DNA of 64,000 nt from sequence record OQ845958.1. One strand, written 5' to 3'. Position 1 is the stretch's first letter. Every line of letters begins with the position of its first letter. Source of the stretch: Escherichia phage pEC-M719-6WT.2. The notes below the pieces were generated by a model, which saw nothing but the letters and a program-made list of their open reading frames with translations, did not search any database and was not told the DNA's origin. A program made the position numbers and the translations under genes. Of the stretch, positions 12,862 through 60,027 are shown one piece after another.

Positions 12862-13090
12862 AGAATATCTTGAGACTGCTGATAAGGCGGTCCGTGAATT
12901 AACTCTGGCCTATTATAAAGAACACGGTAAACTTCCGGATAGTTATTCAGTATTGAAATCTGCTTTAACTCGTTCATATAATAATATGCGTTCAGAAGTT
13001 TATGGTATTATGGTCAAACATAAAGAACAAACCGGTCAATACCCCGATTATACTGAGACCTTCAAACAAGTATTAGGAATTAAGGAATAA
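12848..13090 (+). CDS. hypothetical protein
   Basis: 80 aa. Confidence 0.4.
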
Positions 13091-14314: not shown

Positions 14315-14431
14315 AACCATGGTACACCGCTCGATGGGAAACCGTCGAGCCAGAGGAACCTGTTTACAACGATTCCGAAATAGATTATAATGAACCTTCA
14401 AACAATGATTTAATCGATATGGAGTTTGGAT

Positions 14432-14605
14432 ATGAGTACCAAAATTGAAATTGGCCGTCATAAAGGCCGCCTGATTGAAAAATCACTTTATGAACTGTCG
14501 GATTCCCGTAAGTTACCCGATGAAGAATCTGCTTTAATTTTTGCCGCGGCGGATTATATCCATTGGCTTGAAGCTCAACTTCGCTTTGCTGATAAGGCCT
14601 TTTAA
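14432..14605 (+). CDS. small hypothetical protein (57 aa)
   Basis: hand-translated; stop overlaps next ATG (TAATG). Confidence 0.25.
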   Translation: MSTKIEIGRHKGRLIEKSLYELSDSRKLPDEESALIFAAADYIHWLEAQLRFADKAF

Positions 14606-14877
14606 TGTTTTTAGAAATTGTTAATATTCATGCGGCTGCTCAATCAGGTTTTATGAAAGAGCTTCAAGACGCAGGATTTAAAAATGGTGATGTTATCCAT
14701 GCGTTAAGACAACGTTTTGACCCTGACGTTGAATGTAATGTTTGGGACGTTGTTGAAACGGATGAATACCTTTTTGATACCATAGAAATTGAAGGGTCAT
14801 GGACCTGTATCACTGAGTATATGATAATTGATAATGGTAACGTTGAATGCCATTATCCTTGTTTTAGGATTGTTTAA
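14605..14877 (+). CDS. hypothetical protein
   Basis: 90 aa. Confidence 0.45.
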   Translation: MFLEIVNIHAAAQSGFMKELQDAGFKNGDVIHALRQRFDPDVECNVWDVVETDEYLFDTIEIEGSWTCITEYMIIDNGNVECHYPCFRIV

Positions 14878-15053
14878 TGAAAACTGCATTAGTCTATACC
14901 GAAAAGTTAAACGGTGACAAGGTCTGGAAACTTCTTATCAAAGGAAGCCCTACTGACCAGTTTATGGCCACCTGTGTGGGATTGTATACTCGTCCTACTA
15001 AAAAGATGATTCGTCAATTTAAACGGTTACACCGCGCGTTTTATAAGATTTAA
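14877..15053 (+). CDS. small basic protein (58 aa)
   Basis: hand-translated; TAATG overlap with upstream gene. Confidence 0.3.
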   Translation: MKTALVYTEKLNGDKVWKLLIKGSPTDQFMATCVGLYTRPTKKMIRQFKRLHRAFYKI

Positions 15054-15083
15054 TAAATACCCTTATCTAATAATGGTAAGGGT
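15051..15083 (+). promoter_or_regulatory. gene 49 control region: late-promoter-like TAATAAATA plus SD-sequestering hairpin
   Basis: ATAAATA at 15053-15059; perfect 7-bp stem ACCCTTA/TAAGGGT (15059-15065 and 15077-15083) whose 3-prime arm contains the SD AAGGG, 6 nt before ATG 15089. Confidence 0.5.
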
Positions 15084-15088
15084 TTATT

Positions 15089-15562
15089 ATGTTGTTGACT
15101 GGCAAATTATACAAAGAAGAAAAACAAAAACTTTATGATGCACAAGCTGGTAAGTGTCCAATTTGCCACCGTGATTTGGACTCCGATGTTCAGGCCAACC
15201 ATCTTGACCATGACCACGAATTGAACGGGCCAAAAGCCGGTAAGGTTCGCGGGTTACTATGCAATCTGTGCAATGGGACAGAAGGACAAATGAAGCATAA
15301 GTTCAGCCGTTCGGGTCTGAAAAGTCGCGATGTTGACTACCTGGAATGGTTAGAGAGTTTGCTTGTCTATCTGAAATCTGATTATACCGAAAACAATATT
15401 CACCCCAATTTTGTAACAGACAAAGCCAAAGAGTTCGGTCGTCTGGGGAAAGAAGAAATGATTCGGGAAATGCTTTTGAATGGTATGACTTATAATGAAT
15501 CTGACACCAAAACACAATTAATGGCTTCATTTAAGAAGCAGCTTAGAAAGAGTTTAAAATGA
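15089..15562 (+). CDS. 49: recombination endonuclease VII
   Basis: 157 aa (same as T4 gp49); CPIC...HLDHDH...CNLC zinc-binding and catalytic motifs. Confidence 0.9.
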   Translation: MLLTGKLYKEEKQKLYDAQAGKCPICHRDLDSDVQANHLDHDHELNGPKAGKVRGLLCNLCNGTEGQMKHKFSRSGLKSRDVDYLEWLESLLVYLKSDYTENNIHPNFVTDKAKEFGRLGKEEMIREMLLNGMTYNESDTKTQLMASFKKQLRKSLK

Positions 15563-17376
15563 CAATTGAAAACGAAATTGAAGGATTGATTCATAAAACT
15601 AATAAAGACCTTTTAAACGAGAATGCTAATAAAGATTCTCGTGTTTTTCCAACTCAACGGGACCTTATGGCTGGTATTGTATCTAAACACATTGCCAAAA
15701 ATATGGTTGCGCCTTTTATTATGAAAGCACATGAAAGTGGAATTATTCATTTCCATGATATTGATTATTCCCCTGCTCTTCCATTTACTAATTGCTGTTT
15801 AGTAGATTTAAAAGGAATGCTTGAGAACGGATTTAAGCTTGGTAATGCACAGATTGAAACTCCTAAATCAATCGGTGTTGCTACTGCAATTATGGCACAA
15901 ATTACTGCACAGGTTGCTTCTCACCAATATGGCGGAACGACTTTTGCTAATGTAGACAAAGTATTTTCTCCTTATGTTAAACGTACATACGCAAAACATA
16001 TTGAAGATGCAGAAAAATGGCAAATCACTGATGCATTGAATTATGCCCAATCTAAAACAGAAAAAGACGTATACGATGCATTCCAAGCTTATGAATATGA
16101 AGTAAATACTCTCTTTAGTTCAAACGGACAAACGCCTTTTGTAACCATTACATTTGGTACGGGAACTGACTGGACTGAACGAATGATTCAGAAAGCAATT
16201 CTGAAAAATCGTATCAAAGGTCTTGGTCGCGATGGGATAACTCCTATTTTCCCTAAACTTGTTATGTTCGTTGAAGAAGGTGTTAATCTTTATAAAGACG
16301 ACCCGAACTATGATATTAAGCAGCTTGCTCTAGAGTGTGCAAGCAAAAGGATGTATCCTGATATTATTTCAGCTAAGAATAATAAAGCTATCACTGGTTC
16401 ATCTATTCCTGTTTCTCCAATGGGTTGCCGTAGTTTCTTGGGCGTATGGAAAGATTCGACTGGTAATGAAATTCTTGATGGACGTAATAATCTTGGTGTT
16501 GTAACACTGAATCTTCCTCGCATTGCGTTAGATTCTTATATTGGAACACAGTTCAATGAACAGAAATTTATCGAATTGTTCAATGAGCGAATGGATTTGT
16601 GTTTTGAAGCTTTGATGTGTAGAATTAATTCCTTAAAAGGAGTTAAAGCGACTGTTGCTCCTATTCTTTACCAAGAAGGTGCATTCGGGGTTCGTCTTAA
16701 ACCTGATGATGATATAATTGAGTTATTTAAAAACGGTAGAAGTTCAGTGTCTTTGGGATACATTGGTATTCACGAATTGAATATTCTTGCCGGTCGTGAT
16801 ATTGGGCAAGAAATTTTAACTAAAATGAATGCTCGTCTTAAGCAGTGGACTGAAAGAACCGGTTTTGCTTTTAGTTTGTATTCTACACCTGCTGAAAACC
16901 TTTGTTATCGCTTCTGTAAACTTGATACTGAAAAATATGGAAGTGTAAAGGATGTTACTGATAAAGGCTGGTACACTAATAGTTTCCATGTTTCAGTAGA
17001 AGAAAATATCACCCCGTTTGAAAAGATTTCCCGCGAAGCTCCATATCATTTCATTGCGACAGGTGGTCACATTTCTTATGTTGAACTTCCTGATATGAAA
17101 AATAACTTAAAAGGTCTTGAGGCTGTATGGGATTATGCTGCGCAACATTTAGATTATTTTGGTGTTAACATGCCAGTAGATAAATGTTTTACGTGTGGAA
17201 GTACCCATGAAATGACTCCTACTGAAAACGGATTTGTTTGTTCTATTTGTGGAGAAACTGACCCTAAAAAGATGAACACAATAAGAAGAACTTGTGGTTA
17301 TTTGGGAAATCCGAACGAACGCGGATTTAATCTCGGCAAAAATAAAGAAATCATGCATAGGGTTAAACACCAATGA
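15559..17376 (+). CDS. nrdD: anaerobic ribonucleoside-triphosphate reductase
   Basis: 605 aa; C-terminal glycyl-radical motif RRTCGYLG and Cys cluster; uninterrupted ORF. Confidence 0.92.
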   Translation: MTIENEIEGLIHKTNKDLLNENANKDSRVFPTQRDLMAGIVSKHIAKNMVAPFIMKAHESGIIHFHDIDYSPALPFTNCCLVDLKGMLENGFKLGNAQIETPKSIGVATAIMAQITAQVASHQYGGTTFANVDKVFSPYVKRTYAKHIEDAEKWQITDALNYAQSKTEKDVYDAFQAYEYEVNTLFSSNGQTPFVTITFGTGTDWTERMIQKAILKNRIKGLGRDGITPIFPKLVMFVEEGVNLYKDDPNYDIKQLALECASKRMYPDIISAKNNKAITGSSIPVSPMGCRSFLGVWKDSTGNEILDGRNNLGVVTLNLPRIALDSYIGTQFNEQKFIELFNERMDLCFEALMCRINSLKGVKATVAPILYQEGAFGVRLKPDDDIIELFKNGRSSVSLGYIGIHELNILAGRDIGQEILTKMNARLKQWTERTGFAFSLYSTPAENLCYRFCKLDTEKYGSVKDVTDKGWYTNSFHVSVEENITPFEKISREAPYHFIATGGHISYVELPDMKNNLKGLEAVWDYAAQHLDYFGVNMPVDKCFTCGSTHEMTPTENGFVCSICGETDPKKMNTIRRTCGYLGNPNERGFNLGKNKEIMHRVKHQ

Positions 17377-19904: not shown

Positions 19905-19926
19905 GGGGTCATGGTATAATGACCCC
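19905..19926 (+). promoter_or_regulatory. promoter -10 embedded in palindrome GGGGTCA...TGACCCC
   Basis: GGGGTCA tgg TATAAT GACCCC; same palindrome type as at 48758-48779 and 59968-59989. Confidence 0.4.
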
Positions 19927-48743: not shown

Positions 48744-48779
48744 GTGTACAAACTCTTGGGGTCAGAGTATAATGACCCC
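48744..48779 (+). promoter_or_regulatory. early promoter with -10 inside palindrome (44-bp exact copy of 59953-59996)
   Basis: GTGTACA, 17 nt, TATAAT; GGGGTCA/TGACCCC arms flank the -10. Confidence 0.5.
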
Positions 48780-48815
48780 ACTGGAGAATAAACTTATTAA
48801 CCAAGAGAGAAAATT

Positions 48816-50926: not shown

Positions 50927-52759
50927 ATGATGATTAATAATGAAATTAAAGTACTCTCGGACGTCGAGCATATCAAAAAACGTTCCGGGATGTATATTGG
51001 TTCCAGTTCAAATGAAGCGCATGAGCGATTCTTGTTTGGTGAATATAAGTCCGTAAGCTATGTTCCTGGTATTGTAAAACTGATTGATGAAATTATCGAT
51101 AACTCTGTTGATGAAGCAATTCGCACCAGTTTTAAATTTGCCAATAAAATTGATGTCCAAATTAAAGATAATCAGATTTCGGTTTCCGATAATGGCCGTG
51201 GTATTCCACAAGCAATGGTTACAGACCAAAACGGTGAACAAATCCCTGGCCCGGTTGCAGCATGGACTATTCCAAAAGCAGGTGGTAACTTCGGTGATGA
51301 TGCTGAACGTAAAACTGGTGGGATGAATGGCGTCGGGTCTTCTCTGACCAATATTTTCTCTGTATTGTTCACCGGGATTACTGCCGACGGCACAAATGAA
51401 ATCACCGTTAACTGCTCCAATGGTATGGAAAACAAAGGTTGGTCTACCAAGAAATCTAAGGGTAAAGGTACAACTGTTATTTTTGTTCCGGACTTCAGTC
51501 ACTTTGAAGAAAATAGCCTGTCCCAGATTTATCTGGATATTACATTGGACCGTCTGCAGACTCTTGCGGTTGTTTATCCGGATATTCAGTTTACCTTTAA
51601 TGGTAAAAAGGTTGATGGCAATTTCAAGAAGTTCGCCAAGCAATTCGGAACCGAAGTTGTTATCCAGGAAACTGATACAGTATCGATGGCCTTTACGACT
51701 AGCCCGGATGGTTTCCGCCAGTTGACTTATGTCAACAACATTCATACAAAGAATGGTGGGCACCACGTTGAATGTGTTATGGATGATATCTGTGAACATC
51801 TTCAGCCAGCCATTAAACGCAAATATAAAGGCATTGAGGTGACAAAGGCACGAGTTAAAGAATGCCTCACCATGCTTATGTTCATTCGCGATATGAGCAA
51901 CATGCGATTTGATTCCCAGACTAAGGAGCGATTGACTTCTCCGGCTGGTGAAATTCGAAATCACATTAAGATTGATGCCAAGAAAATCGCACAAGCTATT
52001 CTGAAAAATGAACCACTGATTATGCCGATTGTTGAAGCTGCATTAGCCCGTAAATTGGCTGCAGAGAAAGCAGCAGAGACCAAGGCGAATAAGAAAGCTT
52101 CAAAGGCCAAGGTGCAAAAGCATATCAAGGCCAACGAATGGGGCAATGATAAGCTGGAAACGACTCTATTCCTGACCGAAGGTGATTCTGCAACCGGTCC
52201 ATTTATCAAGGTCCGCGACCGTGAATTACAAGGTGCTTATCCGTTACGTGGTAAGTTCAAAAACACATGGGGTCTGAAAGCTGTTGACGTTATGAAGAAC
52301 GCCGAAGCCTTTGATGTGTGTGCGATTACTGGTTTAACGATTGGACAACCGGCCGAGAATATGAATTACCGAAACATTGCTATCATGACAGATGCGGATG
52401 TGGATGGTGTCGGTAGTATCTATCCATCGTTATTGGCGTTTTTCAGTAACTGGCCAGAGCTGTTCCATGAAGGACGAATTCGCTTTGTGAAAACTCCTGT
52501 TATTATTGCGCAGCTCAAAGATAAACAAGAATGGTTCTATTCTCTTCCTGACTATGAAGAAGCTAAGGATAAACTTCCGAAGCACACCATCCGATATATC
52601 AAGGGGCTTGGTTCTCTGGAAGATGCCGAGTACAAACGCGTATTGCTCGAACCAGTATTCGAAGTTGTTCAATTGCCCGACAACTGGAAAGAACTGTTCG
52701 AAATGCTCTTCGGTAAAGATTCCCAGCAGCGTAAAGATTGGATGAATGCGACACTATAA
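50927..52759 (+). CDS. 39: DNA topoisomerase II large (ATPase) subunit, fused gp39+gp60 form
   Basis: 610 aa; GyrB-like ATPase N-domain and toprim region; length about T4 gp39 (about 519) plus gp60 (about 160). Confidence 0.88.
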   Translation: MMINNEIKVLSDVEHIKKRSGMYIGSSSNEAHERFLFGEYKSVSYVPGIVKLIDEIIDNSVDEAIRTSFKFANKIDVQIKDNQISVSDNGRGIPQAMVTDQNGEQIPGPVAAWTIPKAGGNFGDDAERKTGGMNGVGSSLTNIFSVLFTGITADGTNEITVNCSNGMENKGWSTKKSKGKGTTVIFVPDFSHFEENSLSQIYLDITLDRLQTLAVVYPDIQFTFNGKKVDGNFKKFAKQFGTEVVIQETDTVSMAFTTSPDGFRQLTYVNNIHTKNGGHHVECVMDDICEHLQPAIKRKYKGIEVTKARVKECLTMLMFIRDMSNMRFDSQTKERLTSPAGEIRNHIKIDAKKIAQAILKNEPLIMPIVEAALARKLAAEKAAETKANKKASKAKVQKHIKANEWGNDKLETTLFLTEGDSATGPFIKVRDRELQGAYPLRGKFKNTWGLKAVDVMKNAEAFDVCAITGLTIGQPAENMNYRNIAIMTDADVDGVGSIYPSLLAFFSNWPELFHEGRIRFVKTPVIIAQLKDKQEWFYSLPDYEEAKDKLPKHTIRYIKGLGSLEDAEYKRVLLEPVFEVVQLPDNWKELFEMLFGKDSQQRKDWMNATL

Positions 52760-52762
52760 ATA
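52755..52762 (+). promoter_or_regulatory. T4-type late promoter (TATAAATA)
   Basis: exact octamer overlapping gene 39 stop; followed by hairpin CGGGAGAATATTCTCCCG and SD AGGAGA. Confidence 0.45.
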
Positions 52763-52801
52763 GATACGGGAGAATATTCTCCCGTCTTATAGGAGAAGTC
52801 C

Positions 52802-52954
52802 ATGAAAAAGTGGTGGGTTACGTTGTCAAATGGCGAATACGGTTATCTGTGGGCCGATACTAAACCTCTGTTTGCATCCTTTGTCACCATTATGTGCGAG
52901 ACTTGGGATGGCGAATACTATACCGCATATGGGCAAGTCTATAAAGTTGAGTAG
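52802..52954 (+). CDS. small W/Y-rich protein (50 aa)
   Basis: hand-translated; late promoter and SD upstream, terminator downstream. Confidence 0.35.
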   Translation: MKKWWVTLSNGEYGYLWADTKPLFASFVTIMCETWDGEYYTAYGQVYKVE

Positions 52955-59954: not shown

Positions 59955-59989
59955 TGTACAAACTCTTGGGGTCAGAGTATAATGACCCC
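59954..59989 (+). promoter_or_regulatory. early promoter with -10 inside palindrome (44-bp exact copy of 48743-48786)
   Basis: GTGTACA, 17 nt, TATAAT flanked by GGGGTCA/TGACCCC. Confidence 0.5.
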
Positions 59990-60027
59990 ACTGGAGCAAA
60001 AAACTTTAACTTACTGAGGAAATTAAT

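Follow-up and report, generated by a model that had tools for sequence, protein, structure and literature searches.

The window, by which we mean the whole 64,000-nucleotide stretch of DNA analysed here, comes from a Gaprivervirus of the SP18/VR7 group, a T4-type coliphage of the T4 subfamily. Its segment 14600–15700 is 99.5% identical to phage ECML-359 and 98% identical to SP18. The gene of interest is the ortholog of T4 gene 49, as indicated by its Pfam domains, by the T4-type loci, which are 83% identical, and by synteny, in that it is followed by nrdD (15559–17376) and then nrdG as in T4. The gene 49 product matches both endonuclease VII domains above the Pfam cut-off (PF02945, 6e-20, and PF09124, 2e-25), which bears out the original prediction that the gene behind the hairpin described below encodes endonuclease VII. 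At the 3' end of gene 49, immediately ahead of nrdD, there is a sigma-70-like match (TTAAGA-18-TAAAAT, 15531–15560); in T4, a middle promoter for nrdD lies within gene 49, in the corresponding region (PMC2988021 Table 1).

Gene 49 is preceded by a block of genes on the same strand (nrdC ... pin fragment, DUF7279), the final member of which is a short ORF with a DUF7279 domain. The stop codon of this ORF, TAA (15051–15053), overlaps the late-promoter motif of gene 49, and matches to a sigma-70-like consensus are found further upstream at 12953–12982 and 14363–14391. The immediate upstream neighbour of gene 49 is thus the DUF7279 ORF, whereas in T4 it is pin, whose 3' end resembles the end of that ORF. 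An intact pin is absent from the window (14426–15053). A 59-residue ORF (14426–14605) matches only the C-terminal part of PinA, corresponding to residues 102–146 of T4 Pin (PF10465), and is followed by a 90-residue ORF and then by the 58-residue DUF7279 ORF. In T4 (locus L001, 4898–5383, minus strand) the C-terminal 17 residues of Pin match the C-terminal end of the DUF7279 ORF, giving T4 pin the look of a gene fused to the 3' end of a DUF7279-type gene. The tail of the DUF7279-type ORF and the gene 49 leader travel together.

The sequence between the two genes is arranged in the order TTT-AATAAATA-CCCTTATC-TAATAAT-GGTAAGGGT-TTATT-ATG, and the features of the locus are as follows.

14877–15053, plus strand: upstream ORF of 58 residues, DUF7279 (PF23945, 3e-16)
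15052–15059, plus strand: late-promoter motif AATAAATA, the A(-13) variant of TATAAATA, spanning -13 to -6; identical in T4
15059–15067, plus strand: 5' arm of the hairpin, ACCCUUAUC
15065, plus strand: predicted late transcription start, from the position rule (PMC1524935), 6 nt past the last A of the motif
15068–15074, plus strand: hairpin loop, UAAUAAU, the sole part that differs from T4
15075–15083, plus strand: 3' arm of the hairpin, GGUAAGGGU, containing the Shine-Dalgarno (SD) sequence UAAGGG (15077–15082)
15084–15091, plus strand: spacer UUAUU and start codon AUG (15089–15091)
15089–15562, plus strand: gene 49, endonuclease VII, 157 residues (Pfam)

The hairpin (15059–15083) consists of 9 bp and a 7-nt loop, with a predicted folding energy of -11.6 kcal/mol. 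The original prediction described a 7-bp stem that pairs the SD, and the complementarity of ACCCTTA (15059–15065) and TAAGGGT (15077–15083) is indeed perfect, but the stem is longer than proposed: the pairs T15066.G15076 and C15067–G15075 extend it to 9 bp, and in a long RNA an outer AU helix (15051–15056 with 15084–15089) is added across a 2-nt bulge and reaches up to the A of the AUG. The SD lies entirely within the 3' arm, 6 nt 5' of the ATG at 15089, and is paired at eight of eight positions. ATAAATA, which had been noted as ending at the 5' arm, occupies 15053–15059 within the 8-mer AATAAATA and does so by overlap rather than by mere contact, the last A of AATAAATA being the first base of the arm, with 1 nt shared by motif and stem. 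Applied to this geometry, the -13 to -6 rule sets +1 at 15065, inside the arm (15059–15067), and an RNA beginning at 15065 is without six of the nine bases of the 5' arm.

Folding of RNAs with different 5' ends gives two clearly different predictions for the ribosome binding site. With starts at 14950, 15000 or 15040, the mean probability that the SD (15078–15083) is unpaired is 0.012, and with starts at 15063 to 15068 it is 0.65–0.71. The minimum free energy (MFE) of the late-type RNA falls to -2.9 kcal/mol, and the helix on the SD is gone. The late-type RNA is thus predicted on thermodynamic grounds to keep its SD accessible, and two earlier proposals, that the hairpin masks the SD in RNA initiated upstream and that a late start within the hairpin frees it, both agree with these predictions.

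The motif is a credible T4-type late promoter. The sequence TATAAATA is placed at -13 to -6, and many T4 relatives have A or T at -13 (PMC1524935). A list of 50 T4 late promoters contains 32 that are perfect and nine that have A at -13 (PMC2988020), which makes AATAAATA the commonest late-promoter variant. An AT-rich segment just downstream is typical of T4 late promoters (PMC2988020); CCCTT, immediately 3' of AATAAATA, is richer in G+C than this, so the late promoter of gene 49 may be weak, and the departure may be what a stable stem costs. No promoter is annotated at the gene 49 leader in the GenBank and RefSeq records of T4, and we found no usable genome-wide T4 map of transcription start sites or terminators in the literature.

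Within the window, the hairpin exceeds chance through its position and its conservation, and not by stability alone. It ranks in the top ∼0.3% of 25-nt windows and is one of 38 comparable plus-strand sites in the 64 kb, the 101-nt region around it has a z-score of -2.0, and counts of TAAATA-type words in the window do not rise above shuffled expectation. Of the 26 TAAATA sites on both strands, that of gene 49 alone has behind it a hairpin closing on the last A at a ΔG of -7 or lower. Other late-promoter-like sites with hairpins (52755–52785 and 27464) were rejected, as they proved on inspection to have different designs. At 52755–52804, a perfect TATAAATA overlaps the stop codon of a 610-residue topoisomerase-like ORF; next come an 8-bp hairpin (52766–52785), an SD, GGAG, that is free, and the ATG (52802) belonging to a 50-residue ORF. 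This site combines a late promoter with a hairpin but leaves the SD unsequestered. Elsewhere on the plus strand there are hairpins, rich in G+C, whose loop contains TATAAT (TGGGGTCAGAGTATAATGACCCCAC), identical at 48757–48781 and 59967–59991 and present also at 19905–19926. These repeated hairpins presumably resemble the promoter-early stem-loop (PeSL) cassettes of T4-type phages.

We scanned IMG/VR with gp49 and recovered ∼70 loci, ranging from 99% down to ∼40% identity and lying in genomes of 160–233 kb, among them RB69-, JS98-, RB49-, RB43-, Acinetobacter- and Aeh1-type genomes. The exceptions, or loci left out, are L078 (no TAAATA), L069 (no stable stem), and L062 and L068 (ambiguous start codon). 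In 39 of the 43 distinct leaders running from TAAATA to ATG the MFE stem begins exactly at the last A of TAAATA; it begins 2–3 nt further in for three others, and L069 is the leader without a stable stem. In every one of the 42 leaders folded, half or more of the SD, or some of the AUG, falls within the stem. For this count the SD was located by its duplex with the anti-SD, in place of a fixed -13 to -5 window, which is a poor measure of accessibility where the SD lies partly in the loop. Transcripts starting 6 nt past the motif would lose six of the 6–12 pairs in 38 of the 42 leaders, and 3–4 pairs in the other four.

The stems themselves vary greatly in sequence. There are 27 distinct ones (for example ACCCUUAUC, AGUUCAUCU, ACACUUAUC, ACUCUUAUC, ACCUCUAUA, AGAGUCAU, AAUGACACC and AUACUAAAC), and 95.5% of their pairs are canonical, compared with 62% (maximum 74%) in 2000 permutations of the 3' arms, in a table that is registered by each sequence's own fold. 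A test based on a MAFFT alignment, which is not fitted to structure, is free of that bias: RNAalifold finds five pairs on it, all five with double compensatory changes. On the same alignment 93% of the cells are paired as against 62% when shuffled (0 of 500 shuffles reach 93%), and only 34–54% are paired when the partners are slid by 1–3 columns; because the leaders are related by descent, the shuffle statistics overstate independence, and these counts are not to be read as probabilities. The stem cells include 18 G.U and no A.C combinations, which points to selection on the sense-strand RNA rather than on an antisense RNA or on a cruciform in the DNA. Taken with the compensatory changes among relatives, this strong covariation argues that the helix is under selection.

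The promoter part of the module is kept along with the stem. All four Aeh1-type loci have CTAAATA at the motif position, which is that lineage's own late-promoter consensus, in keeping with the use of CTAAATA by Aeh1 late promoters (PMC1524935). The flanks upstream of the motif are non-homologous between groups, and the module is retained nonetheless. In SP18 (L002, 1953–2046) and several relatives, an insertion of ∼94 bp, absent from the window, lies between the DUF7279 ORF and an intact module; it encodes a hydrophobic peptide of ∼30 residues. Rfam holds no family for the gene 49 leader, all matches falling far below the gathering scores.

Several other explanations of the hairpin deserve consideration, of which the most substantial is that it is mainly an intrinsic (rho-independent) terminator of the upstream unit, with gene 49 being expressed late by virtue of its late promoter alone. 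A consensus scan scores 15059–15083 and its tail TTATTATGTT as terminator-like, albeit weakly, with a stem that qualifies and five U among the eight tail positions, and RefSeq labels the orthologous hairpin of OE5505 (L082, 494–516) 'putative transcriptional terminator, ARNOLD -10.7'. The separate middle promoter of T4 nrdD inside gene 49 (PMC2988021 Table 1) also fits with termination upstream. We nevertheless regard this explanation as unlikely, since the U-tract is interrupted (UUAUUAUG), and among the 42 leaders only 20 have tails with at least five U of eight, two have at least six, and several have only 1–3. Moreover, a terminator needs neither to cover the SD or AUG (42 of 42 leaders) nor to abut TAAATA (39 of 43), and both of these features are near-universal. 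The product of the internal start of T4 gene 49 is, in the 1988 work of Barth and colleagues, said to be translated from early read-through RNA. An internal start in gene 49 is noted as demonstrated in the T4 GenBank record, which also speaks against termination at the hairpin. The annotation in OE5505 is probably a misreading of an RBS-masking hairpin, and automatic 'terminator' calls at the gene 49 hairpin are probably misleading in general. It is possible that partial termination is an additional function beside SD masking, mostly in an accessory role, and some termination of upstream transcription would reinforce late-only expression.

The inverted repeat also overlaps the promoter from -6 to +3, and I-TevI is known to bind an operator that shares sequence with the late promoter of its own gene (PMC2988022). 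The element could accordingly be imagined to act at the level of DNA, either as an inverted repeat bound by a protein as its operator across the late promoter, or as a cruciform on which endonuclease VII itself would act. We consider this very unlikely, because the 27 distinct stems keep complementarity without conservation of sequence, the signature of a nucleic-acid helix and not of a protein site, and because the G.U combinations would, as G.T, be mismatches in a cruciform. It is harder still to credit that the hairpin arose by chance, or is a generic RNA-stability or processing hairpin with a fortuitously adjoining TAAATA. Although the 38 plus-strand sites are equally stable and TAAATA-type words are common in AT-rich DNA, chance would have to account for covariation and a fixed register over more than 40 distinct leaders, for a lineage-specific promoter variant at the same position, and for maintenance of the module despite non-homologous upstream flanks, for example across the SP18 ORF insertion. 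On the evidence of covariation and of the G.U pairs we rejected both the DNA-level and the chance explanations.

We therefore favour the reading that the element is an orthologous copy of the T4 gene 49 translational switch, and we put its probability at about 85%. The anatomy, the identity with T4, the predicted thermodynamic switch and the covariation across the family come from the present analysis. Promoter activity, the start site, read-through and the effect on translation are taken from the T4 literature and from homology, and on that footing the switch would operate as follows. Because an early/middle block on the same strand runs directly up to gene 49, transcripts started upstream would be expected to continue into the gene. 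Between 15051 and 15089 such an RNA would form the 9-bp stem and the outer AU helix, burying the SD and reaching the AUG; with the SD masked, ribosomes would be barred and full-length endonuclease VII would not be made early. Late in infection, gp55-RNA polymerase would recognise AATAAATA and start ∼6 nt downstream, at about 15065 and inside the 5' arm. The late RNA, lacking ACCCUU, would form no stem, its SD would be free, and gene 49 would be translated. Endonuclease VII cuts branched DNA, and the full-length enzyme is needed late, for the resolution of junctions before packaging; late-only translation of endonuclease VII is a textbook example of how T4-type phages set the timing of a late gene situated inside an early transcription unit.

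The switch is already known from T4, and the copy in the window is an instance in a close relative and not a novel one. What the present analysis adds is the evidence from covariation and register, the observation that the internal GUG is not general, and a caution on terminator annotation. T4 is the only phage in which the mechanism was established by experiment, and the covariation found across the family lends it good support from an independent side; annotation of the window gains a late promoter, a regulated ribosome binding site and a predicted transcript start. A wider reading would join three proposals, namely that endonuclease VII is controlled throughout the family by this module as an ancient riboregulator, that gp49' is a recent addition in the T4 lineage, and that the register is itself constrained; as a whole we find it doubtful. 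The idea of an ancient riboregulator draws on the fact that phages from T4 to the Aeh1, RB43 and Acinetobacter types retain the module and hold its stem in register with promoter position -6. That 39 of 43 leaders keep the exact register may point to a further, undescribed constraint, such as promoter opening or partial termination being coupled to the RNA fold.

Comparison with T4 itself is the most direct. The T4 sequence upstream of gene 49 is AATAAATACCCTTATCTATTTAAGGTAAGGGTTTATTATG, and it shares with the window AATAAATA, the 9-bp stem ACCCUUAUC/GGUAAGGGU, the SD and the spacer before the AUG. It differs in the loop, which is UAUUUAA in T4 and UAAUAAU in the window. Since motif, arms, SD and spacer are identical, the element in the window is the same element, the ortholog of the T4 gene 49 leader. 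In T4, according to Barth, Powell, Trupin and Mosig (1988, Genetics 120:329), long early transcripts reportedly sequester the first ribosome binding site, the late promoter is said to lie within the hairpin, and an internal GUG is said to give rise to a 12-kDa product.

The internal start is where the likeness ends. The T4 records annotate the start of gp49' at a GTG, codon 53 of gene 49, and the GenBank record describes the start as demonstrated. In the window, as in most relatives, codon 53 (15245–15247) is GTT, and GTG is found at this codon only in some T4-type loci, one other locus and three Aeh1-type loci. The nested-protein scheme of T4 (gp49/gp49') therefore cannot operate there in the window, and the nested 12-kDa product appears to be specific to T4 and a few other lineages; judged from the sequences, the conserved and presumably ancestral part of the T4 scheme is the hairpin-promoter module and not the internal start. 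The suggestion that the T4 gene 49 mechanism is conserved here consequently stands for the promoter, the stem and their covariation, with function assigned by homology, but does not extend to the internal GUG and gp49', which are absent. In T4 the internal GUG is the sign that early RNAs cross gene 49, and we have counted its absence from the window against the switch.

The same logic is found at other T4 genes. [quoted passage not shown] The design with a late promoter in a hairpin has also been described for homing endonuclease genes (PMC2988022); that article cites Barth et al. 1988 for T4 late genes under this kind of control and prints '39', although the reference is the gene 49 paper. 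The leaders of genes e, soc and I-TevI resemble that of gene 49 in that read-through RNAs mask the ribosome binding site and late RNAs start within the 5' strand, and differ from it in that their sequences and genes are unrelated to gene 49; I-TevI differs further in the additional autorepression by the protein at its promoter. T4-type intrinsic terminators likewise have a short, G+C-containing stem followed by U-rich sequence, and terminator predictors flag the gene 49 hairpin. In contrast to those terminators, the gene 49 hairpin has a U-tract that is interrupted and not conserved, and a stem that is tied to the promoter motif on one side and to the SD and AUG on the other.
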